A DNA stretch of 64,000 nt from an uncultured Verrucomicrobiae bacterium (GTDB lineage: Bacteria; Verrucomicrobiota; Verrucomicrobiia; Limisphaerales; JAFGQR01): the NCBI GenBank assembly GCA_963788655.1, contig CAWBHS010000114.1, positions 1 to 64,000 on the forward strand. Reading direction: 5' to 3'. A program made the position numbers and the translations under genes. The notes under the pieces are model-generated. The model saw only the letters and a list, made by a program, of their open reading frames with translations, was not told the DNA's origin and made no database searches. Positions 1 through 15,179 of the stretch are shown one piece after another; within the stretch, counting starts at the first letter, position 1, and each line of letters begins with the position of its first letter.

Positions 1-1
1 C

Positions 2-325
2 GCAAAGACAGAAGCGCGCTTCATAGTATCAGAAGGGGGCACGGTCGTTCACGCCAGTCAGGCGGAAATGACAGCTTCTCTTGAAGGGGCAGGCTTCACA
101 GGAGTGCCTACACGAAGCCCGGGTATGGCGTATGACCTGCCGAATGGTGTTTCGGCGCGAGCGATGCAGCCATCAGGCCCGAACACATGGCGAACTTCCT
201 TTAACAATGCCTCTGGAACTCGCGTGACTCCAGAAGGTGTCGTTCCTCAGCCGCCACGCGGACTTACGCCTGCCGAACGAACTGAATGGCTGAACCAAAG
301 AACCCACATCACACAACGTCCATGA
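2..325 (+). CDS. Polymorphic toxin tip, cassette 1 (5'-partial; frame open from window edge: AKTEARFIVSEGG...RTHITQRP)
   Basis: Window begins with CGCAAAGACA (AKT), the junction seen in the other cassettes; stop overlaps next ATG (ATGA at 322-325). Confidence 0.7.
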   Translation, partial: AKTEARFIVSEGGTVVHASQAEMTASLEGAGFTGVPTRSPGMAYDLPNGVSARAMQPSGPNTWRTSFNNASGTRVTPEGVVPQPPRGLTPAERTEWLNQRTHITQRP

Positions 326-702
326 ACCCATTTTGGCTTAATCACATTGTATCCGCTTGTCCTCTCAAGATAGAACTCGTGGAGTGGCACGATCCGCAAC
401 TGACAATCGGCGGGGACGGTTGGGGCTTCAATGCCATCGTTCCGTGTTGTCTGTATGATTCGGAGAAAATGCTCACTGGCTCTGGAGATGAAAGCTTTGA
501 GAGATTCATCAAGGCCATAGCGGGAACTCAAATCGTTGGATGCTCCACGCGTGAAGGGTTCAAGGGCGATCCTTGCTTTTCCCTCTCGAACGGGCTGCGG
601 TTAGAGTTTTTCTCTACCTGCACACTTGAACCGTGGACAATGAAATTGCCCAAACCTCCAATTCTTGCTGCATCGCCGGGTGATCCAAAATGGATGACGT
701 GA
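322..702 (+). CDS. Putative immunity protein, cassette 1
   Basis: Small ORF translationally coupled (ATGA) to upstream toxin; MNPFWLNH...PKWMT. Confidence 0.65.
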   Translation: MNPFWLNHIVSACPLKIELVEWHDPQLTIGGDGWGFNAIVPCCLYDSEKMLTGSGDESFERFIKAIAGTQIVGCSTREGFKGDPCFSLSNGLRLEFFSTCTLEPWTMKLPKPPILAASPGDPKWMT

Positions 703-703
703 A

Positions 704-1123
704 ATGATTCAAATAATTTCCAGCCTGCTGGCGCTGCTCTTTTTTCTGAGCGGCCCGGCGATGAAGGGAAGTGACGAAATTTGGCATTCCCCTCTTGCCG
801 CAAAGACGACACCCAGCCTTGATGCGCTGTCCCAAGCTGCGGCTGCCGCTGACCGAGGAGGTTTTACGGCTGCCGGAAGGTCACTGACGAAACATGGTGC
901 TGGCGCAAGACCGGGAAACACATTATTCCCCGCAGCACAGGGCAATCCAGCCACAATCAATCAGGCAGCCCAAAATGTCGTAGATGACATTCTTACAACA
1001 CCCGGAAGCACACTTCAGAACAGCACTCGCGGACGATTTGGGCCTACGATTGAAATTACAGCCCCCGACGGACGCGGAATGGTTTACGACGCCAACGGGA
1101 AATTCCTCTTTTTCAAGGAGTGA
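704..1123 (+). CDS. Leader + polymorphic toxin tip, cassette 2 (probable nuclease/RNase)
   Basis: 35-codon hydrophobic leader ending LAAKT, then AGRSLTKHG...RFGPTIEITAPDGRG...F, resembling C-terminal tips of Rhs/CdiA-type toxins. Confidence 0.7.
   Translation: MIQIISSLLALLFFLSGPAMKGSDEIWHSPLAAKTTPSLDALSQAAAAADRGGFTAAGRSLTKHGAGARPGNTLFPAAQGNPATINQAAQNVVDDILTTPGSTLQNSTRGRFGPTIEITAPDGRGMVYDANGKFLFFKE
795..807 (+). repeat. Cassette junction motif TTGCCGCAAAGAC (copy B)
   Basis: Identical 13-mer at 795, 1444 and 7383; partial copy at 1-9. Confidence 0.9.
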
Positions 1124-1124
1124 C

Positions 1125-1346
1125 ATGAAAGACACACACCGAATCTGCATATCCAGTCCGCCCGACCGGGAAAAGCTCGTTGCCGAGATTTTTTTCGGCG
1201 ACACGCAATGGGCCGAGATCAATCAAGAGCGCGAGTCTTTGGAGGTGGAGTTTTATCCTCGTCCCGACGGCGAGCCGTGGCGAATTGATTATCAAGATGC
1301 ATTGAGCGCGTTGGACGAAGCGAAACGGAGGCTGATTGGAGAATGA
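1125..1346 (+). CDS. Putative immunity protein, cassette 2
   Basis: ATG 1 nt after toxin stop with AAGGAG upstream; small acidic protein (SPPDREKLVAEI...). Confidence 0.7.
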   Translation: MKDTHRICISSPPDREKLVAEIFFGDTQWAEINQERESLEVEFYPRPDGEPWRIDYQDALSALDEAKRRLIGE

Positions 1347-1352
1347 AATAGA

Positions 1353-1781
1353 ATGGCACACATTTTAGCATGTTTGCTGGTGCTGTTCTTTTCGTTGAGC
1401 AGCCCGGCAATGGGGAGGAACGCCGGTTTTTTGCACTCCTCTCTTGCCGCAAAGACAGCACCGACCATCGCAGGCGACGTAGCGGCTGCTGGAAGTAGAG
1501 GGCCAAACTTCATCGCGGCTGCGGATGGAAGCGTCTTTCCTGTTCCGAGAGGAGCAACAGGCCCGCTCCCGACCCGAGCTCCCGGAATGCAATTTACGGG
1601 CGGTTCTGGCGGATACGGACTTGACCCACGAGTGACGGGCGTCCGCTTCATGGATGCGAATGCGAATCAAGGAGCGCGGGCGGTTTACAACAACGGTTAT
1701 CAAACCGTGAATCCGTGGACAGGGCGCACAGTGCCGCCAAGTGACCCAGCAGCACATTTTTACTTCAATCCCAATCCGTGA
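1353..1781 (+). CDS. Leader + polymorphic toxin tip, cassette 3
   Basis: 35-codon leader aligning ungapped with the 704 leader, LAAKT junction, then variable domain ending VNPWTGRT...AHF. Confidence 0.7.
   Translation: MAHILACLLVLFFSLSSPAMGRNAGFLHSSLAAKTAPTIAGDVAAAGSRGPNFIAAADGSVFPVPRGATGPLPTRAPGMQFTGGSGGYGLDPRVTGVRFMDANANQGARAVYNNGYQTVNPWTGRTVPPSDPAAHFYFNPNP
1444..1456 (+). repeat. Cassette junction motif TTGCCGCAAAGAC (copy C)
   Basis: Exact repeat of 795-807. Confidence 0.9.
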
Positions 1782-1782
1782 T

Positions 1783-2145
1783 ATGAGAAAGCCTGTCACC
1801 GAAATTGATGAATTGATTGGAGAGGAAATTTCCACTGTCGCCTTTGTCTGCGATTATGTGGAATTCCATTTTTCTGGACCGATCCTTGCGGCCTTTACCA
1901 ATCCGCGCGTAGTTGTTGAGGGAATCGAGTATCGCTTTCCTGAACCGGGTTCGCGTGATGCGTTGTGCCGCGTCATCGGTTCGACAGTTCGCAGCGTAAA
2001 GTTAGAGGAGCACCGCGCGTTGGAGTTAATGACCAGCAACGACTGTCGTCTCATAATCCCACTCGACGCCGGAAATCTTCGGAGAGGGGAATCGGAAGCA
2101 ATGCACTTCGTCCCTGAAAAAAACGGGCCAATCCAAGTTTGGTAG
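1783..2145 (+). CDS. Putative immunity protein, cassette 3
   Basis: ATG 1 nt after toxin stop; MRKPVTEIDELIGEEISTVAFVCDYVEFHF... Confidence 0.7.
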   Translation: MRKPVTEIDELIGEEISTVAFVCDYVEFHFSGPILAAFTNPRVVVEGIEYRFPEPGSRDALCRVIGSTVRSVKLEEHRALELMTSNDCRLIIPLDAGNLRRGESEAMHFVPEKNGPIQVW

Positions 2146-2432
2146 CTCACCGAACGCTCGCAGCCCCGCGCTGTCAGGCCGGCTGCGAAAGCAAAGGCCA
2201 GCCGTCCTGCCGTCGCGGGCCTACTCGCAAAGACAACATCAGTCTGCCCGTGGCGTCGTCCGTCCCGGCACGCGGGCGGGACGAATTGCTTGATAATTGG
2301 AGTGTCCCGCCCGCGCGCCGTGCCGGCCGTCGTCACCGGCAGAACAATGACGACCGCTGACGCTGCCCGGAAATATCAGTTCGCTCCCGCTCAAAACTTC
2401 GGAACGAATGCGCGCAAGTGACGATGTGCTCC

Positions 2433-2768
2433 GTGGGGAAGCCAGGGGCGCGCCGGTCACTCGGCCTGCTTACGCGGAGTATATGCCGCACAATATCGTG
2501 ATAGCTTGAGTTGCCGCTCCCCTGCCGCAGGCGCAACCCAGGGGAGCGTCACCGTTGCGCGCGGCTCCGCAGAGCGTGTGGCCAAGCGTTCCGGCTACGG
2601 TGCTCAGGAGCGATTGAACTTTTAGATGGGTGCTCCTTGCGCGCCTGTGCCTTCACGCATGGCCACACCCTCTGCGCCGCCGTGCTCACTACTCAGAGCC
2701 ATCAGATATTGTGCGGCATATATCCGCTCCGCACGCCTCGCGCCCGTCACGCCCCCGGCTTTCCCCAC
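2433..2768. repeat. Nested imperfect inverted repeats (long rod-like fold-back), non-coding
   Basis: 2433-2450/2750-2768, 2474-2511/2691-2727 and 2569-2589/2655-2675 pair; perfect 10-bp side stem 2515-2524/2539-2548. Confidence 0.85.
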
Positions 2769-3245
2769 TTCGCAGTTTGAAAAGTCAGGCGCGGGAAAGG
2801 CGCGGCGCACGTCGCGGATTTTTCGCGCGTTACTTTCCGCGTGCAACGGCGCGGGTGGTTCGGGGCGAAGACGGCTTTTAGAGTGGCGAGTTTGAAACGT
2901 TCACGCTCGCAGTGAACTTGAACGCGCTCATTGCAATCGCGCGTCCTGGTCTTGCTTTGTAGGCGCTCTGGCTGCCGCGCCGGGCAGCGTGAAAATGCTG
3001 GGCGCATTTTCTTTCTTAGCTGCTGGTCCGGGAGCGATGGAACGTCGCGGGTAATCGGGCGTCGCACCCTGGCGGCAGTGCGAGTGGGCCTTGTGCGTTA
3101 CGCGCGCGCGTCGGAAACGCGCGTGTCGCTTCGCTCCACGGCGCGCCGCCACGCGCGCGCGAGGTTTGGGTGGGCGAAAGTTTTTGGAGCGCGCGTGGCG
3201 GAAGAAAAGCGGAAGCCGCTGGCGCGGCTAAAAGAAAAGCGGCCG

Positions 3246-3449
3246 TCAGGTGTTGCCGTTGGCCTGCTGCTTCACGAACGCTTCGACGAACTCGGCGACC
3301 TTCTCTTGCTGGCGACGCGGCAGTTTCGACGCGGACTCAAACACCAACTGCAAGCGGCCTTTGGCCGCCTGCTTCTTGGGCTTGGGTGGCGTGACACCCA
3401 GGAGCGCGTCCACGCTCACGCCGAGGACTGCGGCCATTTTCGGCAGCAC
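3246..3449 (-). pseudogene. C-terminal remnant of XRE-family HTH regulator
   Basis: LPKMAAVLGVSVDALLG is the last XRE helix motif; N-terminal HTH helices absent, frame runs into primase. Confidence 0.7.
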
Positions 3450-3457
3450 TTCGCCGC

Positions 3458-6013
3458 GTGGCGGCGGGCCGCGAGTTGAAGGCGCGGCTGCAAAAGCTCG
3501 GCGTGTTGCGCAAGGAAACCGGACACGAGCACTTGAACGGCTCGGTCGTGTTCCCGATCTGCGACCGCAACGGTTCGGTGGTTCAGCTTTACGGCCGCAA
3601 AATCACCGACGGCTTGCGCAAGGGCACGCCGCTGCACCTTTACCTGGAAGCGCCCAAGCGCGGCGTGTGGAACGCCGAAGCGGTGATGGCGGGCGGCGAA
3701 GTCATCCTGTGCGAAGCCATCCTCGATGCGTTGACGTTCTGGTGCGCGGGCTTTCGCAACGTGACGTGCAGCTTCGGCGCGGGCAGCGTGAACGAAGACC
3801 TGTGGGCGCTGCTGCACGACGCGCGTCCGCGCTGGCTCATCCTCGCCCAGGACAACGACCCGGCGGGCAACGACGCGGTGGCGAAGCTCGCGCCGCGACT
3901 TGCCGAACTCGGCATCGGCGTCAAGCGCGTGCAACTGCCCGCCGACGTGGACGTGAACGCTTACGCCTGCCAGAGCGCCGACGTCGCGAAGGCGCTGGCC
4001 GCGCTGCTGGAGCAGGCGCACGTCCTCGTTGCTCACGCAGTTGAGCCAGCGGCTAAAGAAAAAACTTCTGTCTCCGACGTGACGCCGGCGTTGCCACCGG
4101 AAACGGCCGTCGCGCCGCAGGCCCAGCCGCTTTCTCTTTTAGCTGCTTCGGTTCAGCCGCCGCCTGTGCCGGCGACGCCGGCCACGTCGCCAGGCAACGG
4201 CGCGCTGCATCCCGAACACAAAGGCGAGGACATCTTCTTTCACGTCGGCGACCGCGAGTATCGCGTGCGCGGGCTGGCCAAGAACACCAGCTTCGAGGCG
4301 TTGAAGGTCAATCTGCGCGTGAAGCTCGACGAGGAACGCCATCACCAGGACAACGTGGATTTGAACTCCGCCAAGAACCGCGAGGCGTTCCTCCGCGCCG
4401 CCGCGGCGGAGACGCACTTGAGCGAGGACATTTTGAAACGCGACCTCGCGCGGCTCTTGCTCAAGCTCGAAGAACTGCAGGAGGAAATCATCCGCCGCGC
4501 TCTCGAACCCAAAGGCCCGGTCGTGCCCGGCCTGACCGAGGAGGAACGCCGCGAAGCGCTGGCCTTTTTGCAAGCGCCCAACTTGCGCGCCTTGATCGTC
4601 GAGCACTTCCGCGCCTGCGGCGTGGTGGGCGAGGCGGACAAGATCGAAACCGGTTACTACGCCGCGCTCTCGCGCAAGTTCGACAAGCCGCTCGGGGTCA
4701 TCATCCAGAGCACCAGCGCGGCGGGCAAGACCACGCTCATGGAAGCGATCCTGGCCATGATGCCGCCGGAGGAAGTCGTCCAATACTCCGCCATGACCGG
4801 GCAGGCGCTCTTCTACCTGGGCGAAGCGGACATCCAGCACAAAATCCTCGCCATCGCCGAGGAGGAAGGCGCGGAGCGCGCCACCTATGCGCTGAAACTC
4901 TTGCAGAGCGAAGGCCGCCTGACCATCGCCAGCACCGGCAAGGACGCGACCACGGGCCGCTTGATTACCGAAACCTACCGCGTCGAAGGCCCGGCCATGA
5001 TCTTCTTCACGACCACGAGCATCGAGCTTGATGAAGAACTGGCCAACCGCTGCCTGACACTCACGGTGGACGAGTCGCGCGAGCAGACGCGCCGCATTCA
5101 CGAGCTCCAGCGCGAGGAGGAAACCATCGAAGGCCACCTGCGCAAAGCGCGCGCGGCGCAGTTGCGCAAACTCCACCAGAACGCGCAGCGCCTCTTGCAG
5201 ACGATCCCGGTGCATAATCCCTTTGCCCGCCAACTCACCTTCCCGGACGAGAGCACGCGCCTGCGGCGCGACCAGAAAAAATATCTCACCCTCATCCGCG
5301 CCATCGCGCTGCTGCACCAGCACCAGCGCCCGCGCCGGAAAGTGTGCGAGCCGCACGGGCAGGCAGGCGTGGAGCACGTCGAAGTCACGCTCGAGGACAT
5401 CGCCACGGCCAACCGGCTCGCGGGCGAAGTGCTCGGACGCAGCCTGGACGAAATGCCGCCGCAGACGCGGCGCTTCCTCGATCTGCTGCACGACCTGGTG
5501 ACGAAGCAGTGCCAGGCGCAGGAAATCCAGCCGCGCCATTACCGCTTCACGCAACGCCAGGCCCGCGCCTTCACCGGCTGGACGGCCTTCCAGGTCAAGA
5601 AGCACCTGGCCAAGCTGGTGGACCTCGAATACGTCCTGATCCATCGCGGCAGTCGCGGCCAGCAGTTCGTTTACGAACTGGTTTACAACGGGGAAGGCCG
5701 CGACGGCGCGAGCTTCCTGCCGGGATTGATCGACGTGGCGAAGTTGAAGGAGAACGCGGGCGACCCGCCCGCCGCTTCCAACTCGAAACTCGAAACTCAC
5801 AACTCGGAACTGCCTTACGATGGCAACCGGGAGCACCCAAACGGCGACCGGGAGCACCGTGGCAGCCCCGAGGGAGCACCCAGGTTGCAGGGTGGGAGCA
5901 CTGGAGAAAACGCGCCTTCGCCCAATGCGGACGCGGCTCAAACGCCTGTCGCGAAAAAGCAGCCCCGAAAATCGCGCCCCGGGAGCGATGACGCGGCCAA
6001 TCGTAAATCGTAA
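3458..6013 (+). CDS. Toprim-domain primase fused to P-loop NTPase, mobile-element type; lacks N-terminal zinc finger
   Basis: Toprim motifs CEAILDALTF and AQDNDPAG, Walker A STSAAGKTT; no CHC2 Cys/His cluster at N-terminus. Confidence 0.8.
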   Translation: MAAGRELKARLQKLGVLRKETGHEHLNGSVVFPICDRNGSVVQLYGRKITDGLRKGTPLHLYLEAPKRGVWNAEAVMAGGEVILCEAILDALTFWCAGFRNVTCSFGAGSVNEDLWALLHDARPRWLILAQDNDPAGNDAVAKLAPRLAELGIGVKRVQLPADVDVNAYACQSADVAKALAALLEQAHVLVAHAVEPAAKEKTSVSDVTPALPPETAVAPQAQPLSLLAASVQPPPVPATPATSPGNGALHPEHKGEDIFFHVGDREYRVRGLAKNTSFEALKVNLRVKLDEERHHQDNVDLNSAKNREAFLRAAAAETHLSEDILKRDLARLLLKLEELQEEIIRRALEPKGPVVPGLTEEERREALAFLQAPNLRALIVEHFRACGVVGEADKIETGYYAALSRKFDKPLGVIIQSTSAAGKTTLMEAILAMMPPEEVVQYSAMTGQALFYLGEADIQHKILAIAEEEGAERATYALKLLQSEGRLTIASTGKDATTGRLITETYRVEGPAMIFFTTTSIELDEELANRCLTLTVDESREQTRRIHELQREEETIEGHLRKARAAQLRKLHQNAQRLLQTIPVHNPFARQLTFPDESTRLRRDQKKYLTLIRAIALLHQHQRPRRKVCEPHGQAGVEHVEVTLEDIATANRLAGEVLGRSLDEMPPQTRRFLDLLHDLVTKQCQAQEIQPRHYRFTQRQARAFTGWTAFQVKKHLAKLVDLEYVLIHRGSRGQQFVYELVYNGEGRDGASFLPGLIDVAKLKENAGDPPAASNSKLETHNSELPYDGNREHPNGDREHRGSPEGAPRLQGGSTGENAPSPNADAAQTPVAKKQPRKSRPGSDDAANRKS

Positions 6014-6030
6014 ATCGTAAATCATAAATC
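5999..6030 (+). repeat. Heptamer tandem repeat (AATCGTA)x4.5
   Basis: AATCGTA AATCGTA AATCGTA AATCATA AATC between primase and recombinase. Confidence 0.9.
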
Positions 6031-6035
6031 GCGTC

Positions 6036-7073
6036 ATGCCGAAGAAAGGAACTCACTCGCCGCGCGCGCCCATCAGCGACCCGCGCGACCCGCATGGCTG
6101 GCACGCGCTCACCGAATCGTTCTGCGAATGGATGGCCGTGCGGAACTACTCGCCCAAGACCGTGGACAACCGCCGCACTTACTTGCGCTACTTCGTCCAG
6201 TGGGCGCTGGAGCGCGGACTGCATCAGCCGATGGAAATCACCAAGGCCATCCTGGAGCGTTACCAGCGCCATCTCTTTCACTACCGCAAGCGCGACGGCC
6301 TGCCGAGGTCGGCGCGCTCGATGCACGCGCGCCTCATCCCCGTGCGCGCCTTCTTCAAATGGGCCGCGCGCCAGAACCGCATCCTCTACAATCCGGCCAG
6401 CGAGATTGATCTGCCGCGCTCCGAGAAGCGGTTGCCCAAGCACGTCCTCAACGTCTCCGAAGTCGAAACCATTTTAGCCAGGTGCAACCTCGCCGACCCA
6501 CTCGGCATCCGCGACCGCGCCATGATTGAAACCTTTTACTCGACCGGCATGAGGCGCAGCGAACTGGCGAACCTGAAGGTGATGGACCTCGATTACGAAC
6601 GCGGCACAGTGATCGTCCGCCAGGGCAAAGGCCGCAAGGATCGGATGATCCCGATCGGCGAACGCGCGCTGGCCTGGATCAAGCGTTACCTCGATGAAGT
6701 CCGGCCCAGCCTGGTGCGCGAACCCGACGACGGCGTGTTGTTCCTCACCAATCTATTCGAGCCGTTCACGCCCAACCGCCTGACGCAGCTCGTGCGCGAC
6801 TACATTGACGCCGCCGAACTCGGCAAACGCGGCAGTTGCCACTTGCTGCGCCACACCTGCGCCACGCTGATGCTGGAGAACGGGGCGGACATCCGCTTCA
6901 TCCAGCAGTTGCTCGGACACGCCGAGTTGAGCACCACGCAGATTTACACCCAGGTCAGCATCCAGAAGTTGAAACAGGTTCACGCCGCCACCCATCCGGC
7001 TCGCCTTGAGCGCAACGGTGAAGCTGCTTCCCCGAAGTCAAAGCCGCCGGGCCAGGCTTCGCCCGCCCCGTAA
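6036..7073 (+). CDS. Site-specific tyrosine recombinase (XerC/XerD-like), intact
   Basis: Catalytic R (TGMRRSE), K (GKGRKDR), HxxR (HLLRH), H (LLGH), Y (TQIY); N-terminal SAM-like domain. Confidence 0.93.
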   Translation: MPKKGTHSPRAPISDPRDPHGWHALTESFCEWMAVRNYSPKTVDNRRTYLRYFVQWALERGLHQPMEITKAILERYQRHLFHYRKRDGLPRSARSMHARLIPVRAFFKWAARQNRILYNPASEIDLPRSEKRLPKHVLNVSEVETILARCNLADPLGIRDRAMIETFYSTGMRRSELANLKVMDLDYERGTVIVRQGKGRKDRMIPIGERALAWIKRYLDEVRPSLVREPDDGVLFLTNLFEPFTPNRLTQLVRDYIDAAELGKRGSCHLLRHTCATLMLENGADIRFIQQLLGHAELSTTQIYTQVSIQKLKQVHAATHPARLERNGEAASPKSKPPGQASPAP

Positions 7074-7168
7074 TCCGCGCTCGCGCCCTTCTTCTTTAGC
7101 TGCTTAACTTCAGCCGCTGACCAGGCGCGGCCTGGACGCAATGCGGCTTCGCCGCGTAGCTGCTGAAG

Positions 7169-7708
7169 ATGAACGCGACTAAAAGAAAAACGCTGCTCCC
7201 TGCCAGCCTTTCGGCTGCGTGGGGTTTGCTGCTTCTGGTCGTAGCGTGTGGCGGGCTGGAAACTCGCGTCTGGAGTTTTGCCGCCACGCCCCCAACTGCG
7301 TCGGATGAAATCACTTTCGCAACCCCTTCATTCATCGGGGAAATTTACGACGCGGTTGCCTATGATGCGTCCGACTCCCTTGTTGCCGCAAAGACAGCAG
7401 CGACCGAAGCTCGGGGTGGAACATACCTTTTGCGTGACCCGGTGAACGGTCAAGTCATGCGAACCGGACGTAGCAATGACCTGCTACGACGGGCAGGAGA
7501 ACACGGTCGTGATCCGGCTTTCCGTGACTTTCAGTTCGAGCCAGTTCATCGCACCGATGTTTATTCGCAACAGCGCGGGCTTGAGCAGTTGCTACACGAC
7601 ACACACAACCCGCCGCTGAACTTTCAACGGCCAATCAATCCGGCCAATCCGAACCGGCAAACGTATCTGGACGCGGCACAGCAGTTCTTGCAGGGAGGCA
7701 ACCCATGA
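7169..7708 (+). CDS. Leader + GIY-YIG/URI-like nuclease toxin tip, cassette 4
   Basis: Hydrophobic N-terminus, VAAKT junction, then GGTYLL...RTGRSNDLLRR.GEH...RGLEQ...LN (URI-fold pattern). Confidence 0.7.
   Translation: MNATKRKTLLPASLSAAWGLLLLVVACGGLETRVWSFAATPPTASDEITFATPSFIGEIYDAVAYDASDSLVAAKTAATEARGGTYLLRDPVNGQVMRTGRSNDLLRRAGEHGRDPAFRDFQFEPVHRTDVYSQQRGLEQLLHDTHNPPLNFQRPINPANPNRQTYLDAAQQFLQGGNP
7383..7395 (+). repeat. Cassette junction motif TTGCCGCAAAGAC (copy D)
   Basis: Exact repeat; similarity to copy C extends on both sides (ACTCC..T.TTGCCGCAAAGACAGCA.CGACC). Confidence 0.9.
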
Positions 7709-8187
7709 AGCTTCCCTATCGTGAAGGAACGTGGTTTGGAGTCCCGCTGCGACAAGGCGGTTTCGCGGTGGGCCTAGTCGCCAGAGCGACCACCGAAGGC
7801 AAGGTCATCCTCTGCTACTTCTTCGGCCCGCGCCGAACCGCAGTTCCGCCACTTGCCGAAGTGGAACGGCTCAAACCAAGCGGCACAATCCGGGTTGTTC
7901 GAGTGGGCGACCTGTCGCTCATTCGCGACGAGTGGCCAATCATCGGCCAAGCCGCATCGTGGAAACGGTCGGATTGGCCGATGCCGCCGTTCGTTCGGCG
8001 CGACGACCTCTCCCTCAAAGCGTGGCGAGTGCAATACTCAGACGCCGATCCAAACACGATAGACCACGAAGAGCCGGAACAATACGAGAGCACGTTAGAG
8101 CGCGACGCCGTGCTTGGCTCAGGTGCTGCCGAGTTGGTGCTGACGAAGTTGTTGAGTGAACCGCCGGTGTCCCGCCAAAAGGTGTAA
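7705..8187 (+). CDS. Immunity protein, Imm26-like
   Basis: ATGA overlap with toxin; EGTWFGVPLRQGGFAVGLV...YFF pattern typical of Imm26, which accompanies URI-fold toxins. Confidence 0.7.
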   Translation: MKLPYREGTWFGVPLRQGGFAVGLVARATTEGKVILCYFFGPRRTAVPPLAEVERLKPSGTIRVVRVGDLSLIRDEWPIIGQAASWKRSDWPMPPFVRRDDLSLKAWRVQYSDADPNTIDHEEPEQYESTLERDAVLGSGAAELVLTKLLSEPPVSRQKV

Positions 8188-8415
8188 GGAATCTAGCTCG
8201 CCTCAGGCCGGCTCGATAGAAGGTCGGCCACCCGCGCCTGCCGCACAGCCCTCGCGCTGCCTTCGCTGCGGAGTGCGGCACAGCCAGAGCCAGAACGTGC
8301 TAGCAGATGATCGCGCAAACTGCGGACAGCGGTCGCTTCTTAACATTCACAAGCCACGAGTGGAATTGAGTTGGCAGGACGAAGCAGTGCCTGAACACTG
8401 ACCTGAATTGGCTGC

Positions 8416-9198
8416 ATGAGACGTTTGGTTCAATTCGTCATGCTGGTGTTAGCGGCGTTGGCCCTTGGCCACACGTCTGCCGCCGTCGGGTATCCTTGCG
8501 ACGCGGTTCCGCCCCTCCAAGCTCTCACCCTGCCGAATGGCAGCGGGATCACCAATTCCTTCGATTCATTGGCCCGCCTGACCGCCACGGCGCTCACCAA
8601 CAGCGGCCAGGCCCTGCTGAATTTGCACGGTTACGATTACGACCTGCTGGACCGACGCACCAACCAGGTCTTTCTGGCGGGCAACGCCCTGGCCTACGGT
8701 TATGACGCCATCAGCCAATTGGAGACGGCTGTCGGCTTTGAGGCGGACGCCTCGCCGCGTTTCCACGAGCAATTCACCTATTACTACGACGCTGCCAACA
8801 ACCTGCAAACCCGGATCAAGAACCAACTGGTTCAGACCTTTTACCCCGATGACCGCAACCAACTGAGCAGCGTGGTGCGCTCGGGCACCTACACGTTGAG
8901 TGGCTGGACCGAGTCGTTACCGAGTTGGCGCGTGCAAACCGTCCAGCTTAACGACGCCTCGGCGGGCTTCCGGTCCTACGCGGACAAGACCTACGCCGTC
9001 ACGAACGTTACCCTGGCCAACGGCTGGAACCATTTCACCAACGTGGTGCATTGGAAAGAAGGCAGCCTCGGCGCCACCAACACCGTCAACGCCTACCTGC
9101 CGGCAGCGGTCAGCTTCCAATACGACGCCAACGGCAACCTGACCAACGACGGCCTTGATATTGACCACTCCGCTGTAGGCAGGATTTGCTGGGAGTGA
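8416..9198 (+). pseudogene. Leader fused to internal Rhs/YD-repeat fragment
   Basis: MRRLVQFVMLVLAALALGHT leader; YD repeats (YDYDLLDRR, YGYDAISQL, YYYDAANNL, FQYDANGNL); no Rhs core end or toxin. Confidence 0.75.
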
Positions 9199-9230
9199 GG
9201 GTTGCCGAGATACTGGCCCCCACGTTTTGG

Positions 9231-9329
9231 ATGAGACGGCTGATTTAATTCATTTTGTCCTTGCTGGCGCTGTCGGCTTCGGCCTTTGCCCACACCCCGT
9301 CCCGAATCCCATGCAACAAATCGAATTAA
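9231..9329 (+). pseudogene. Degenerate empty leader copy
   Basis: MRRLI*FILSLLALSASAFAHTP..IPCN; homologous to 8416 leader with TAA at 9246 in place of CAA. Confidence 0.65.
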
Positions 9330-9404
9330 GGAACGTGCAGGGACTCAACTCAACGATGAACTTTAGCCTTTTCCATTTCCGGCAATGACCTACCTTCCCT
9401 GGCC

Positions 9405-10475
9405 ATGCGTGAAGCGTCTTTGGATTTTTTGCGGAACTTGATCAATACCCCCAGCCCCTCGGGGCACGAAACGCGAGGCCAACGGGTCTGGCTGGATTAC
9501 GTGCAACCGTATGCGGAGGAAACGTTTTCGGATGCGTACGGCAATTGCGTCGCCGTCTTGAACAAGGGGGGATCACCACGGTTGATGCTGGCCGCGCACG
9601 CGGACGAAATCGCCATGACCGTAAATTACATCGACGATCACGGCTTTATTTATGTCCGCAAACTCGGGGGCATCGATGCCGCGATCACCAAGGCCCAACG
9701 GATCGTCATTCACAGCCGCCAGGGCCCGGTGAACGGTGTCGTGGGCAATGTGGCGCCGCACTTGATGCGCGACAAAGGCGATCGCAAGGTGCCCAAGCTC
9801 CACGAATTGTTCATCGACATCGGGGCCTCCTCCCGGAAGGAAGCCGCCAAACTTGTCGCCATCGGTGATCCCATCACATTGGCGGACCAGTTTGAATTGT
9901 TGCGGAATGACCTGGCGGTGGCGCGCGCGTTTGACAACCGGATCGGCACCTTTGCCGTGGCCGAAGCCCTGCGGCTGTTGTCCAAATCCGCCACCAAACT
10001 CAAAGCGGAAGTGTGCGCCGTGTCGAACATCATGGAGGAAGTGGGCCTGTTTGGAGCGCGCCAGATTGCCTACAGTCTCAAGCCCGACGTGGCCCTGGTG
10101 GTCGATGTAACCCACGCAACCGATTATCCCACCGTGAGCAAGGAAGAGCACGGCGACGTCAAGATCGGCAGCGGCCCGGCCATCACCCACGGCGGTTGCA
10201 ACCATCGGGAAGTCGTGGCCCGCCTCGAACAGGTGGCGCACGAAGAAAAGATCGCGTTGCAACATGAAGCCACTTCCTCAACCAGCGGGACGGACACGGA
10301 CGCGATTTTCTGGACCCGGGGAGGAATTCCCAGCGCGTTAGTCAGCCTGCCCAATCGCTACATGCACTCGCCGGTGGAAGTGGTCAGCTTGAAAGACCTC
10401 CAACAAATTCCCGAACTGTTCGCCGGCTTCGCCCAATCGCTCAAGAAGGGTGAGCAGTTCAAGGTGAGGATTTAA
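9405..10475 (+). CDS. M42 family metallo-aminopeptidase
   Basis: AHADEI, AFDNRIG, EEVG, VDVTH, RYMHSP motifs. Confidence 0.92.
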   Translation: MREASLDFLRNLINTPSPSGHETRGQRVWLDYVQPYAEETFSDAYGNCVAVLNKGGSPRLMLAAHADEIAMTVNYIDDHGFIYVRKLGGIDAAITKAQRIVIHSRQGPVNGVVGNVAPHLMRDKGDRKVPKLHELFIDIGASSRKEAAKLVAIGDPITLADQFELLRNDLAVARAFDNRIGTFAVAEALRLLSKSATKLKAEVCAVSNIMEEVGLFGARQIAYSLKPDVALVVDVTHATDYPTVSKEEHGDVKIGSGPAITHGGCNHREVVARLEQVAHEEKIALQHEATSSTSGTDTDAIFWTRGGIPSALVSLPNRYMHSPVEVVSLKDLQQIPELFAGFAQSLKKGEQFKVRI

Positions 10476-10479
10476 CTGC

Positions 10480-12420
10480 TCAAGGCACTTTGAGCACTCG
10501 GAGGAATTGCCCGCCCACCGATCCATCCGTCAATCCGGTGGCCATCCCGGGTGTGGTCAGGGGCAGCCATGGATTGCCGGCGCGGGTCCAGGTTTGGAAA
10601 TCCGTTGAGCGATAGATTTCGTAAAGTTCGTAGGGCCGGGCAATCCATTCCAGCGTCTGGCCGTTAAAGGCCGTGATCCGCAGCGCGGAAGCTGCCTGAG
10701 TTGGATCCGTGCCCAACCGAAATTCTTCGAGGTTCGTCAGCCCATCGCCGTCGTAATCATCGTTGGGTCCGCGGTTGGAACCAGCCGCAGGATTCGCGTT
10801 ACCCCAATATTGCTCCATCCAAATATCCGGGAGGCCGTCCCCGGAATTGTAAGGATAGGCATCGGCGTTCAACGAGATAACCCGCGCATAAACAAAGGGG
10901 GAAGCGTTGGTGCCGTCCGAAAAGCGAAAGGCCACTTCGTCGTAAAAACTGCCGTCCGCCGGGTCCACTCGATCCGCCTGATAGTAGCCCTTGGGCGTGA
11001 ACTTGAGCCGGTCACCGGTCAAGGTAAACGTCCCAGCACCGTCAGTGGCGTCCGTCGTGGCGATTGTCAACGGAGACGACTGGAGGTCATACCCGCGCAA
11101 CCGAATTTCATTGATGCCCGAAATACTTGGCGCACCCGAAGGGATTGTTACGATGTCCATCACCCGCCCATACGTGTAAGGTGGCGTGTTGACCGCCGGA
11201 TAAGCCTGTTGAATCACCGGTGGGTCATAGCTGCCCAAGCTCGCACCACGACCGCCCTGATGAACGAAATAATACATGATCGAATCGCGCAAGGTCGCAT
11301 CAAGTTCATTCGGGTCCACGCTGGAGTGGGCCAGACTCAACACGTGACCCAACTCATGGCAGAGCACTTCCGTCAATGTTACGGGATCCTGCACATCCGG
11401 TTCGGTGTGCTTGACCACCACATATCCGGAGACCGTCGCATAAAAGTCGTTGCCCGCCACGTTGCCGCCATTGAACCAATCAGCGCCAGGAAGCACGTCC
11501 GAGGTGAAAGCTATTCCCCCGATGGCCAACGCGTCGGAGCCCGACACGAAGCCATACGTGTTGTGCAGTTGGATGCGAATGTAACCGTCGTCGGCATCCA
11601 CGTCGCCAGCGGCCTGTCCAAAACTCTGAAGCCCGGCGTACTTGAACTTGAGGCTGGTCACGGCGGTCCAAGCGTCCATGGCGGTTTGGATCGCATCCAA
11701 ACCCTGTTGCAGCGTAATCCCCGCCGGCAAGACATCCGCGTCCACCAAATACGGAATCGGTTCGCCGCGGTCGGGAGCAGCGAAACGCGCCGAAAAGCCA
11801 TTGCTGTCCACCAGGAGACCCGTAGCATTGTTGTGGCCGGTCAGGACTGCAGGAAGCAATGCTGATTGCGCGGGCGCGGCCGCCAGACCGGCTTGGTCCG
11901 TGACGTCAGCGCCCAACGTATCATCCGCAGCGGCCTGGCGAACGGCCGCCAGCAACGAAACATCCGTCGCAACAAAATTCGCCGCGCCCCCTCCGGATCG
12001 CTCCTTCGAGCTTTCCCCGCGCCGCAACCAGATCGCGCTGGCGGCGCCGTTCAGCGCCTGCAACGTGCCGTCCCCGCGCCGGCGGAGGAACAACAATCGT
12101 TCTTCCCCCATTTTGAACTGCGGGGCAAAACCATTGAGTTCACCGCGGCCTCCCCACGTGCCGCCCCGGTGAACCACCGCCACCACGGACGGGAATTTGC
12201 CCTTGAACACTTCGTCCACGCGAATGTGCGTGCGCGTGCAAATATGCCCGTCCGTCGTACGCTTGAAACATTCGATACGGACAACCTCGCCTCGGCAGAC
12301 AGCGTCCGCCAGACGCACTTGTTGTGTGCTTGAGAGGGGACGAACCATCGAAGCCTCGGTGACTGAACCGGTAACCAAGCAGCCGGCCGTCAATGCCGCG
12401 AAGATCAGCGGGTTCTTCAT
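10480..12420 (-). CDS. Secreted metzincin (M10/matrixin-like) metalloprotease
   Basis: Signal peptide; HELGHVLSLAH zinc motif, SIMY Met-turn; C-terminal DGDG...EFRLGTDP segment. Confidence 0.8.
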   Translation of the reverse strand: MKNPLIFAALTAGCLVTGSVTEASMVRPLSSTQQVRLADAVCRGEVVRIECFKRTTDGHICTRTHIRVDEVFKGKFPSVVAVVHRGGTWGGRGELNGFAPQFKMGEERLLFLRRRGDGTLQALNGAASAIWLRRGESSKERSGGGAANFVATDVSLLAAVRQAAADDTLGADVTDQAGLAAAPAQSALLPAVLTGHNNATGLLVDSNGFSARFAAPDRGEPIPYLVDADVLPAGITLQQGLDAIQTAMDAWTAVTSLKFKYAGLQSFGQAAGDVDADDGYIRIQLHNTYGFVSGSDALAIGGIAFTSDVLPGADWFNGGNVAGNDFYATVSGYVVVKHTEPDVQDPVTLTEVLCHELGHVLSLAHSSVDPNELDATLRDSIMYYFVHQGGRGASLGSYDPPVIQQAYPAVNTPPYTYGRVMDIVTIPSGAPSISGINEIRLRGYDLQSSPLTIATTDATDGAGTFTLTGDRLKFTPKGYYQADRVDPADGSFYDEVAFRFSDGTNASPFVYARVISLNADAYPYNSGDGLPDIWMEQYWGNANPAAGSNRGPNDDYDGDGLTNLEEFRLGTDPTQAASALRITAFNGQTLEWIARPYELYEIYRSTDFQTWTRAGNPWLPLTTPGMATGLTDGSVGGQFLRVLKVP

Positions 12421-12427
12421 AACATGG

Positions 12428-15019
12428 TCAAGGTATCATGAGTCGATAGAAACGTGCCTGGCCCGTCAGATTGTTGGTCACCGTATTGCGACCACCGACA
12501 AGCGTGGGCACATTGGTCACGCTCACCCAGGAGTTCGTGGCCAACGGATTGGACGTTGCCTGGAGTTGAAACGGATTGCCCGTCTGGGCCCAGGAAATGA
12601 CCACCGCCGGGTTGTCGGGCGATTGGACAATCTGCAGCGCGCGCGACTCATCTCTGGTCACGACAATGGCGGCCGTGGCGGTATTGTTGGCGAGGGTTTC
12701 GTCGGTTTGCTGCGCATTCACTGTGGCAGCGAACGCTGCGTATCCTTCGGCCAGCATCGGCCCGCTGAATTGAATGTTGGCGTGCGCGCGATTGGTCAGG
12801 TAACCCAAATCACAAATCAGCCAGCCGTTGGATTCCACACAGCTTCCCTGGTCGGTTTGCAGTGAGAGCACGGTCATGCCGGTCGGCAGTTGGCCGGTCA
12901 CAACGACGCTACTGACCGTCCAGGGGCCGCGATTGCTGACGGATAGCGTGTACGTGCCGGATTTCCCTGGGCTCGTCAAGGCGGGCGCCGCCGTGTTGCT
13001 CAGGACCACGTCACTCGAACCGACCACCAAAAATAAATTGGTGGTGACCGCGGTGCCGCTCGGCGTGTCCACCCGAATCGGGCCGGTGGACGCCGTTCCG
13101 GGCACCACAGCGGTGACTTCAGTGGAGGAAACTTTGGTGAACGAGGCACCGACGCCGTTGAAGTACACCGCCGAAGCCTCGCTCAACGAAGTGCCCAACA
13201 CGGTTATGACCGCGCCCGTGGCGCCCAGTTCCGGCGTGAAATTCGTGATTCGCGGTAACACCTGGTAGGCATTGGTGCTGGTGATCAAACCTCCCGGCGT
13301 GACCACCGTGAGCGCACTGCTCCTGGCTTCGACCGGCACGGTTGCGTCAAGTTGCCCGGGAGCCACGGCAAACGGTGCGCTGGTTTCGCCGAAATAGACT
13401 TCGGTCGCGCCGTTAAAATTGGTGCCAGTCAACGTCACGTGGTCTCCCACAAAACCTTGCTCGGGGGTGAAGCTGTTCAGCCACGGCGGCACGTAAAACG
13501 TCAACGTGTTGGTGCTGGTCCCGCTCGCGCTGGATACAGTAATGCGACCGGTCGAGGCTCCGGCGGGCACATGCGCGGTGATCTTTTCACCGATGGGTTG
13601 AGTCACGACCATCGCCGTCGGATCAATGACTCCATTGAACCGCACTGTGGGCGTCGGGCCAAAATTCAGTCCGTAAATCTCGACCTGCGTCCCGCGCGGT
13701 CCCCCGTCGGGCTCGAAGCGAGTGATGTAGGGGAAATAGGGAGTTACTACGAAGTTGCTGACCGTTAAGAAGCTGCCGCCGGAGTTATAGACCCTCAGCG
13801 GCCCGGTTGAGGCTCCCTGGGGGACGTAGGCCGTTGCCTGATTTTGCGCCGTTGCAGAAACATCGGTGCCTGCCATCCCGTTAAACGTCACGGCGCCTAC
13901 GGTATTTAGATTCTGCCCGTAAATGCGCACTTGGGTTCCGGGAGGCCCCAGCCAAGGTTCGAAGCGCTCAACAATCGGCGCCGTCGTTACCACGAAATTG
14001 CTGTAACTGGCGCCATAACCGCATGCGTTATAGACCCAGATCGGGCCGGTGGAGGCGCCGTAGGGAACTGAGACAATAATTTGGTCGGGAGTCGGCGTAC
14101 CGGGGGACGAGGTCACCTGTTGGGTGTTGAACCAGACGCCGGGCGAGATGAAGGTGTCGAAATTAATGCCGTAAATCGTGATGGTATGGACCGTATCCCC
14201 AGCGACGCCAAACGTCGGAGCAAACCCGGTAATCACCGGGGCACAGGTCACCGTGAAATCGTTCGTACTGGTGCCGGAGCCGGCTGCGGTGGTGACCTTC
14301 ACCCGGCCGGTCGAAGCGTTCCCAGGCACCTCAACGATGATTTGAGTTTCGGCCGGAACCGAGCCATTAGTCACCGGAGCACCGTTGAACTCAACCTTGG
14401 TGACATCCACAAAGTTCACCCCATAAATCCGGATTTCCGCCCCGGGCGCGCCGAACGCTACGGAGAAACTGTCGATGATCGGCCCCGGCCCGGTCACCAC
14501 AAAGTCTGACGTGGAGAGCACCGTGCCGGCATCCGTGGTGACGCGGATCGGACCGTCGGCACCTCCGGCCGGCACAACGGCGCGAATCTGGGTTTCGCCA
14601 ATAACCGAGAAAGCCGCGTTGGAGCCGTTGAACTGCACATGCGTGACGCCATTAAAGTTGAAGCCGTTAATCGACACCTCCATGTTCGGGGCGCTACGTG
14701 TGGGCATGAAGTCGGAGATTCGCGGCGCCGCCCTAAAAATGCCGCTGCTCGTGGCCGCTCCCGCCGGCGTGGTGACCCGCAACTGACCACTCGTAGCGGT
14801 GGACGGCACAACCGCCAGGATTTGAGCGTCGTTGACCACCTTGAAATCCGCCAGCACATCGTCGAATTCGACCTTGGTGGCCGTTAGCAAGCCCGCGCCA
14901 GTCAGCGTCACCTGCGTGCCCGGCGCCCCGTGGTTGGGAGAAAAACTGCTGATTACCGGAGCCGCGGTTAGGACGAGGCCCGTCTGCAAGAATAGCCCGA
15001 TGCTGGTCAAGGAATTCAT
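12428..15019 (-). CDS. Secreted IPT/TIG-repeat surface protein with DUF11-like domain
   Basis: About eight repeats of P.I..F.P..G..G..V.I.G.NF...V.FNG; TYTLSVSNRGP...DETLANN DUF11 pattern; start uncertain (15019 or 15031). Confidence 0.85.
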   Translation of the reverse strand: MNSLTSIGLFLQTGLVLTAAPVISSFSPNHGAPGTQVTLTGAGLLTATKVEFDDVLADFKVVNDAQILAVVPSTATSGQLRVTTPAGAATSSGIFRAAPRISDFMPTRSAPNMEVSINGFNFNGVTHVQFNGSNAAFSVIGETQIRAVVPAGGADGPIRVTTDAGTVLSTSDFVVTGPGPIIDSFSVAFGAPGAEIRIYGVNFVDVTKVEFNGAPVTNGSVPAETQIIVEVPGNASTGRVKVTTAAGSGTSTNDFTVTCAPVITGFAPTFGVAGDTVHTITIYGINFDTFISPGVWFNTQQVTSSPGTPTPDQIIVSVPYGASTGPIWVYNACGYGASYSNFVVTTAPIVERFEPWLGPPGTQVRIYGQNLNTVGAVTFNGMAGTDVSATAQNQATAYVPQGASTGPLRVYNSGGSFLTVSNFVVTPYFPYITRFEPDGGPRGTQVEIYGLNFGPTPTVRFNGVIDPTAMVVTQPIGEKITAHVPAGASTGRITVSSASGTSTNTLTFYVPPWLNSFTPEQGFVGDHVTLTGTNFNGATEVYFGETSAPFAVAPGQLDATVPVEARSSALTVVTPGGLITSTNAYQVLPRITNFTPELGATGAVITVLGTSLSEASAVYFNGVGASFTKVSSTEVTAVVPGTASTGPIRVDTPSGTAVTTNLFLVVGSSDVVLSNTAAPALTSPGKSGTYTLSVSNRGPWTVSSVVVTGQLPTGMTVLSLQTDQGSCVESNGWLICDLGYLTNRAHANIQFSGPMLAEGYAAFAATVNAQQTDETLANNTATAAIVVTRDESRALQIVQSPDNPAVVISWAQTGNPFQLQATSNPLATNSWVSVTNVPTLVGGRNTVTNNLTGQARFYRLMIP

Positions 15020-15179
15020 CTTTTGGATCACGAATAATCACCCAACACTTCTTATTGGGCAATACATTATTTGTGCTCGGATTTCATTGATCCGCCCAAG
15101 CCGGTTTGGAAGTTCTCCGATCAAACAAACCTTAGCTGTATCCATTCAGTAGCTGGAGCAGCAAGGACGCGATTCGGCG

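Follow-up and report, generated by a model that had tools for sequence, protein, structure and literature searches.

A Candidate In-Frame Recombination Core at the Leader/Tip Junction of Small Polymorphic Toxins in Verrucomicrobiota

Introduction

The diversification of polymorphic toxins is usually ascribed to homologous recombination with orphan cassettes, and a recombinase-linked site lying in frame inside the toxin gene would, if true, be a second and more modular mechanism. Here, we describe a candidate for such a site in an uncultured Verrucomicrobiae bacterium of the order Limisphaerales (GenBank assembly GCA_963788655.1, 8,956,290 bases). The stretch of DNA analyzed, referred to below as the window, comprises positions 1-64,000 of contig CAWBHS010000114.1 (C114) and begins where the contig begins. 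Four toxin-immunity pairs (tip A and toxins B, C, and D) lie within 1-8187, and a short core sequence recurs in frame where the N-terminal leader of the toxin meets its toxic tip. A XerC-family tyrosine recombinase is encoded between toxins C and D. We consider it likely, with due reservation, that the core is a site-specific recombination site for swapping tip-immunity modules and that this recombinase is the most likely enzyme.

Several systems in which a recombinase shuffles coding DNA are already known. In shufflons (Rci, with sfx repeats in pilV) and in the vsa/vpma systems of Mycoplasma (HvsR/Xer1), DNA between inverted repeats is inverted by an adjacent recombinase, and the payload consists of pilus tips or lipoproteins. 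Our locus resembles both in that the crossover falls in or just ahead of the coding sequence and links one constant part, N-terminal or for expression, to a choice of C-terminal bodies. It differs from the shufflon, however, in that the cores of the window are all direct (3/3), as are most of those in related loci (166 of 182 on the cassette strand), and in that toxin and immunity genes are the payload. Because the cores are direct repeats, insertion, excision, and replacement are the expected events, and the logic recalls an integron or an att site more than a shufflon. A first-pass annotation of the window had likened the junction to both integrons and shufflons; the former parallel is the closer.

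The likeness to integrons lies in a tyrosine recombinase beside co-oriented short cassettes, in a very short core as the only common sequence, and in a recombinase-proximal cassette that differs between otherwise identical platforms. The differences are equally clear. The integron-integrase models failed (TIGR02249, 118.8 against a cut-off of 265; NF011946, 89.1 against 435), the best model being XerC (NF002331). No attC-type element is found at the cassette 3' ends, the common element being instead the 5' in-frame core with its weak dyad of ~10 bp. This core lies inside the coding sequence and joins two parts of a protein, a cassette being a tip with its immunity gene, and the platform additionally carries a primase and a repressor-like gene.

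Closer in gene content are the rAID-1 (recombinase-associated acquired interbacterial defence) elements of Bacteroidales, in which a XerD-like recombinase is associated with arrays of orphan immunity genes, lacking working toxins, and integron-like intergenic repeats; they are defined by at least two co-oriented genes 3' of the recombinase, at least 44% identity to BF9343_RS08045, and low GC (10.1101/471110). Polyimmunity loci also adjoin XerC/D genes (PMC3482391), and Additional File 1 of that paper is a list of loci linked to a recombinase. Our locus shares with rAID-1 a XerC/D-like recombinase 5' of at least two co-oriented genes related to polymorphic toxins. In contrast to the orphan immunity genes of rAID-1, it carries complete leader-tip toxins with immunity genes, an in-frame repeat, and a primase. 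The orphan cassettes of Rhs and CdiA systems resemble it in that tips and immunity genes form tandem pairs, that the tip boundary is marked by a conserved motif, and that there are leaderless orphans which are silent (PMC3482391). The exchange partners described here, however, share 9-13 nt and not the homology of RHS PxxxxDPxGL or CdiA VENN regions, most cassettes have a start codon and leader of their own, and a dedicated recombinase is linked to them.

The literature searched, which covered the main text of open-access and bioRxiv papers, gave no description of a core lying in frame, or of an element with primase and XerC, at the tips of toxins. If true, such a system would account for the reassortment of unrelated leaders and tips among strains at the precision of a single codon. 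The XerC/D-like genes beside toxin/immunity arrays, noted in PMC3482391 and in the rAID-1 work but left unexplained there, would likewise be accounted for, and the system would offer a natural means of swapping protein domains in frame with a site of ~30 bp and one enzyme.

Conservation of the Junction Core

The 13-mer TTGCCGCAAAGAC is present in exact copies at 795-807, 1444-1456, and 7383-7395, all on the forward strand, and CGCAAAGAC opens the window, so that an exact search bears out what the first-pass annotation had listed. These three are the only exact copies in the whole assembly. One mismatch gave 23 scattered assembly matches, not clearly above the reversed control (totals at up to one mismatch of 11 forward and 15 reverse, against 7 and 5 in the control). 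Within the window, 7 matches at up to two mismatches compare with a shuffle mean of 3.18, and 7 was reached in 1 of 100 shuffles; the four extra matches (41256, 41317, 47847, and 59521) are what chance would give. The 13-mer is missing from the one other genome of the family. Across 401 genomes of the class, counts of the 12-mer YTTGCCGCAAAG were like those of the reversed control in nearly all, the sole outlier being G348 (10+2 against 0+1), although the 12-mer is too short a pattern and metagenome-assembled genomes (MAGs) rarely assemble such arrays.

All copies in the window are read in the same frame, xTT GCC GCA AAG ACx, giving (L/V)AAKT at the leader/tip boundary. Over 88 nt, leaders B and C share 75% identity, and yet they match in 16/16 positions at the junction, while the leader of toxin D is long and unrelated, sharing with them a 32-nt patch at 81-88% identity. 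The earlier claim that the junction is conserved while the leaders diverge is therefore upheld. Codon bias cannot explain the identity, as the junction codons are rare in the long open reading frames (ORFs) of this genome, where GCA accounts for 7.7% of Ala codons, CTT for 8.7% of Leu codons, and ACA for 5.9% of Thr codons.

For a wider comparison, we used a set of 86 related loci (numbered L, with positions after a colon), 74 from metagenomes and 12 from MAGs titled Verrucomicrobiota, Chthoniobacterales, or Terrimicrobiaceae, two of these titles being probably mis-binned. Together with positions 1-10000 of the window they amount to 325,335 nt, in which GCCGCAARG occurs 182 times, with 166 occurrences on the cassette strand, against 17 in the reversed control. 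Two leader classes were found without recourse to the DNA core. Long-leader junctions, located by a protein motif, read GCC GCA in 85 of 86 cases and GCG GCA in one; among short leaders, located by a hydrophobic motif, 24 of 25 carry AAK, and all 24 read GCC GCA AAG. A YD-rich class (five copies each in L027 and L101, and also L063, L066, L083, L088, and L110) and a fourth, signal-type class (L034 and L043), both found by searching for the DNA core, end in it as well.

In a set of 114 unique junctions, the bases at -1 to +5 and at +8 never vary, and an A at +14, a wobble base in unrelated tips, is kept in 107. The core even persists where nothing upstream can be translated into it, since in leaderless cassettes it comes directly (0-12 nt) after an in-frame stop codon (L064:1104, L067:1029, L093:834, L073:1644, L074:1478, and L088:3551). 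The constraint on the junction acts at the DNA level, as had been proposed from the window: the same core follows unrelated leader classes, the T at -1 is fixed, the core stands behind stops, and the A at +14 is maintained. The comparison of synonymous sites among homologs, which had been put forward as a check, is informative across leader classes and not within the long-leader class. There, almost no codon varies (33 representatives, kept below 97% identity, with a median pairwise identity of 84%), so that wobble conservation inside the class does not discriminate, and it is the cross-class comparison and the exchange breakpoints that do.

A constraint on the protein alone would make LAAK a processing or linker motif, with the identical codons left over from recent common descent of the leaders. 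LAAK(T/G/A) is indeed kept as protein in all classes, and the near invariance of all long-leader codons fits the recent spread that this class looks to have undergone. Against this, the leader classes are unrelated outside the core. In the short class, the codon before the core is CTT, TTT, GTT, ATT, or AAT, so that the residue varies (L, F, V, I, or N) with the final T fixed and TT in four of the five, and at long-leader junctions the K of AAK can be replaced by R, N, E, or G. With the persistence of the core behind stop codons, the rarity of its codons, and the ending of tip homology at the core at nucleotide resolution, this explanation is already largely refuted, and we regard it as very improbable.

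The imperfect palindrome seen by the first-pass annotation is real but short: the dyad centered on the middle C of TTGC-C-GCAA averages 6.3 of 10 pairs over the 114 junctions, against ~2.5 at other centers. Such a dyad and the conserved wobble bases could equally serve a signal in the mRNA, for instance one for cleavage, recoding, or regulation where leader and tip meet. With a single base at its center, however, the dyad would allow only a weak 4-bp hairpin; the core has no Rfam match, and an RNA signal leaves the DNA rearrangement breakpoints at the core unexplained. An RNA-level constraint is, in our estimate, barely plausible.

Other core-like sequences were seen. Several of the 16 reverse-strand core matches fall near the 5' end of long leaders: an inverted core, CCTTGCGGC, which encodes SLAA, stands ~200 nt upstream of the junction in many of them (in L062, L063, L069, L071, L072, L083, and L096) and could allow inversions. 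In the window, the partial core CGCAAAGAC recurs at 2226-2234, 80 nt past the last cassette and beside the inverted repeat with 40-nt arms at 2243-2343. It was rejected as a functional core, not being kept in L040, L100, L109, L027, or L101, and may be due to chance or be a local remnant. Positions 1879-1899 and 6624-6644 form a 21-nt inverted match (20/21 complementary) that links immunity gene C with the recombinase gene, and the copy on the recombinase side holds the core-like GCCGCAAGG, which encodes the conserved GKGRKDR.

Exchange Breakpoints at the Core

The breakpoints of sequence exchange coincide with the core. Tip-sharing pairs were defined by at least 90% identity over the first 60 nt of the tip, and 17 junction pairs from different metagenome records combine the same tip with unrelated upstream DNA (a related count gave 16 pairs). 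In these, homology stops 0-4 nt before GCCGCA, and the partners share only 9-13 identical nt, with flanks that are unrelated at 20-33% identity. The converse arrangement was found in 30 pairs whose upstream DNA is 97.7-100% identical over 469-2877 nt, in some cases including primase and recombinase. In 19 of the 30, the downstream DNA is unrelated, with the first differences at +6 to +13 from the first base of the core, and the other 11 are duplicate records of one sequence. For example, L049 and L050 are 100% identical over 2877 nt and then unrelated. A whole segment between two cores is shared by L057:197 and L092:118, which are identical from 2 nt ahead of one core through the final base of the following core, 1791 nt on, and unrelated outside. 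Tandem cores parted by 12 nt of another tip (L100:145/166 and L034:983/1004) look like footprints of secondary-site use.

As all of these breakpoints fall within ~9-13 nt, they argue for a crossover site at the level of DNA, and the earlier suggestion that tips are swapped here is supported by both the 17 tip-sharing and the 19 same-upstream pairs. We conclude that the core is very probably a DNA crossover site. Assembly artefacts do not account for the tip-sharing pairs, since 13 nt shared on the left is below any assembler word size.

Among the public sequencing runs listed, all of them in the form of contigs and none an RNA data set, at most 0.12 of the words sampled from positions 1-9500 of the window was found in any one run. 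Aligned at 88%, the contigs of four runs (X1, X2, X4, and X5) cover mainly the backbone (~2150-7390) and, apart from it, 7926-8560. The only joint at the core, from 1456 to 2194, is present in one contig of X2 (side 29) and is too weak to use.

The Recombinase and Its Mobile Backbone

The first-pass annotation had suggested that the adjacent tyrosine recombinase may swap the tips. Its neighborhood is conserved: the recombinase gene or a 3' fragment of it lies directly upstream of a long leader, on the same strand, in 30 of the 86 loci. Full-length copies are present in nine loci, which come down to six distinct sequences when duplicate records are counted once. The primase is syntenic in 10 loci and stands just upstream of the recombinase in most loci with a full-length copy. 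Interior cassettes are often preceded by recombinase 3' fragments that start at residue 238, 243, 263, or 270, or by a conserved 49-nt element alone (7059-7107 in the window), and the same element is also found inside arrays without recombinase. The interior fragments fit the decay of tandem copies of the whole element.

In contigs of relatives, depth begins at ~2150, with loose ends before it, and homology of the window to relatives ends at 8262, with loose ends behind. Rfam and tRNA scans of 1-9600 and 1-12000 gave no match, hence no tRNA-type att site is indicated, and a scan of viral contigs with the primase gave no relative.

Two kinds of short repeat lie in the backbone. Four tandem TAAATCG-like heptamers at 5998-6035 run across the stop codon of the primase gene, the last of them finishing shortly ahead of the start of the recombinase. 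Their copy number may vary, as contigs of relatives join 6029-6031 back to 5999 with varying inserts and depth there is far above that of neighboring bins. The motif AGCTAAAGAAA / TTTCTTTAGCT is present in six copies forming three inverted pairs (3008-3024, 3224-3247, 4049-4072, 4131-4147, 7088-7104, and 7175-7198). One pair brackets the start of the toxin D leader, and the motifs could be operator, iteron, or arm-type sites.

The Same Gene Trio on Proteobacterial Plasmids

Homologs of the recombinase that are 57-62% identical and annotated as XerC are encoded on proteobacterial plasmids. In all three annotated plasmid records examined, the trio of helix-turn-helix (HTH), Toprim, and XerC genes lies behind a toxin gene of very large size with its immunity gene, and small orphan ORFs for toxins or immunity proteins come after the trio. 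The toxin is of FG-GAP/RHS type in Janthinobacterium (L113), where an Imm26 gene lies downstream; it is TpsA2 in Pseudomonas aeruginosa pPA1609-475 (L114) and of filamentous-haemagglutinin type in Paraburkholderia (L115), and in the latter two the unit is in tandem.

In the P. aeruginosa plasmid, a unit of 8.2 kb repeats, 1676-5456 recurring at 9855-13593 with 95.5% identity, and the repeat starts exactly at a similar in-frame core, GGTGCAAAAGGGG, within TpsA2 (between ILG and GAKGAG), the sequences upstream being unrelated. The second, orphan copy is preceded by an in-frame stop, and a third GGTGCAAAAGGGG core precedes a C39-type cassette. An RHS-linked AAK junction is present in the Janthinobacterium record (L113:1146). 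It looks as though the strategy is general and the core sequence lineage-specific.

Proposed Mechanism and Alternatives

With conserved synteny in 30 of 86 loci and on three plasmids, the link between core and recombinase is circumstantial but strong, and the enzyme at 6036-7073 probably, though by no means assuredly, acts on the core. The earlier interpretation as a whole is supported.

Several points weigh against this interpretation. Pairs with the same upstream DNA and different tips may partly be assembly paths across repeated leaders, and the evidence as a whole comes from contigs. Arrays without a recombinase within 6-8 kb exist in chromosomal settings (L109, L085, L065, and L083), and four of five array MAGs, which are incomplete, gave only 34-40% identical Xer-like proteins with this query. 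For a site of a tyrosine recombinase, the invariant part of the core is short, and the symmetry of the arms is weak. The right edge of the island at 8262 lies in backbone-type sequence and not at a core, so that first entry into the chromosome may use another site. On the plasmids, an AAK-type core after XerC is absent from L113 and L115, and the L115 orphan keeps ~170 aa of ordinary pre-toxin homology.

Some of these same observations, namely the arrays lacking a nearby recombinase, the distant Xer-like genes of the array MAGs, and the island edge away from the core, favor a reading in which the core is the crossover point but the neighboring recombinase is not the enzyme. Exchange would then proceed by short-homology recombination (RecA-dependent or by template switching) or through the host Xer proteins, and the primase-integrase element would merely carry the arrays as cargo beside its integrase, with its att site elsewhere. 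Cargo between an integrase and its att site is common in islands. Recombination of orphan tips by homology is moreover the accepted model for Rhs and CDI loci (PMC3482391). However, the exchange partners share 9-13 nt only, between flanks that are 20-33% identical. The order of recombinase, leader, and core, found in 30 loci, recurs beside toxin gene ends in another phylum, and the P. aeruginosa repeat unit begins exactly at the in-frame core. Identity of 9-13 nt is also too little for efficient RecA recombination. We judge exchange without the neighboring recombinase to be rather unlikely, while far from negligible.

Site-specific recombination by the XerC-family enzyme could work as follows. 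The core would be ~12 nt, YTT GCC GCA AAG, with an invariant T GCCGCA..G, an A at +14, and a weak 10-bp dyad, placed in frame between leader and tip. Any segment between two cores, be it a tip with its immunity gene and the next leader or the whole backbone, could be excised, or inserted at another core, always in frame, and a single step would fuse a new toxin-immunity module in frame to a resident leader. The HTH gene, Toprim primase, and recombinase would form a mobile backbone whose right end is a leader and core. The core would serve as the attachment site of this primase-recombinase element, in a putative circular form of which a single gene would run from the leader through the core to the tip. 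Upon integration at the core of a resident toxin, the incoming tip would gain the resident leader and the displaced tip would gain the leader of the element. Repeated integrations followed by deletion of the backbone, if events ran in that direction, would leave tandem tip/immunity arrays. Whether this amounts to a hitherto undescribed class of mobile elements (repressor, Toprim primase, and XerC-like integrase) with an in-frame att site at the leader/tip junction, a "protein-fusing integron" that arms Verrucomicrobiota and uses other cores at proteobacterial CdiA/RHS ends, is in our view an evenly balanced question.

Toxin-Immunity Cassettes and Neighboring Features

The toxin genes of the window are small polymorphic toxins, in which a constant N-terminal leader is combined with unrelated toxic tips and immunity genes. 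Their coordinates and those of the backbone are given in Table 1.

Table 1. Coordinates of the cassettes and backbone features at the start of the window.
Feature	Position	Strand	Remarks
Right two thirds of core, CGCAAAGAC	1-9	+	At contig start; 15/16 identical to copy at 7387; leader off contig
Tip A, 5'-open, begins AKTEARF	2-325	+	Without Pfam or NCBIfam match
Putative immunity gene A	322-702	+	ATG overlaps tip A stop (ATGA); without family match
Toxin B: short hydrophobic leader 704-793, junction CTT GCC GCA AAG ACG 794-808, tip	704-1123	+	
Putative immunity gene B	1125-1346	+	Placed after tip B; without family match
Toxin C: short leader 1353-1442, junction CTT GCC GCA AAG ACA 1443-1457, tip	1353-1781	+	
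Putative immunity gene C	1783-2145	+	Without family match
Non-coding left backbone, nested inverted repeats 2243-2343, 2480-2722, 2556-2688	2150-3245	.	Kept from ~2150 in L028, L040, L100
Small HTH repressor-like gene	3246-3449	-	RstR family 1.5e-05, below cut-off; kept in L040, L100, L107, L044
Toprim primase with P-loop domain, 851 aa	3458-6013	+	Toprim_2 1.1e-12, Toprim_3 9.5e-08, DnaG domain 1.5e-12
XerC-family tyrosine recombinase, 345 aa, candidate enzyme	6036-7073	+	Phage_integrase 5.1e-44; NF002331 437 bits against cut-off 371
Conserved 49-nt element ahead of long leaders, with motif TTTAGCTGC	7059-7107	+	~45 matches at 82-94%
Toxin D: long leader 7169-7381, junction GTT GCC GCA AAG ACA 7382-7396, tip	7169-7708	+	
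Imm26 immunity gene	7705-8187	+	ATG overlaps toxin D stop; 1.4e-13, 51.5 bits against cut-off 23.3
Conserved end sequence after last cassette before a backbone	8159-8262	+	94% to L027, L101; 92% to L109; 85% to L040, L100

The cassettes are tightly packed, the stop codons of the immunity genes lying 1-7 nt from the start of the next leader. Positions 717-1473, which reach from leader B to 17 nt beyond junction C, match L042:998-1751 with 80% identity. The tip of toxin D is weakly similar to T5orf172/GIY-YIG nucleases (T5orf172 0.0021, below cut-off) and is found elsewhere on RHS and PT-HINT proteins. Imm26, the immunity gene that follows it, has been paired with Tox-URI1 nucleases (PMC3482391). 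The 76-residue leader of toxin D is found elsewhere on many other tips. A profile of this leader matched 136 proteins at E<=1e-5, which measure 139-338 aa among the 120 listed, and the tips of long-leader proteins carry RNase, HNH, LHH, AHH, SHH, WHH, NucA/B, REase-9, EndoU, colicin D, and other Pfam toxin domains. Judging by its basic N-terminus, hydrophobic stretch, and Cys, the long leader is a putative Sec or lipoprotein-like signal that would direct export.

A family search of the window leaders revealed no RHS or VENN region. No main toxin gene 5' of tip A was found in the other contigs, none of which overlaps the contig start, and the rest of the genome holds no other (L/V)xAAKT toxin junction. 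In related loci, RHS proteins with the same AAK core do occur (L109:9136-11199, with the junction at L109:10858), and in L111 an RHS protein of 2195 aa adjoins a long-leader cassette. Directly downstream of the island, at 8416-9198, the window encodes the N-terminal part of an RHS-repeat protein; this fragment has a signal-like start and stops after 260 aa. Further on, two adjoining genes on the reverse strand (12428-15031 and 10480-12420) encode large secreted-looking proteins, one of 867 aa built from numerous beta-rich repeat units and the other of 646 aa and containing an HExxH motif, both seemingly unrelated to the junction core.

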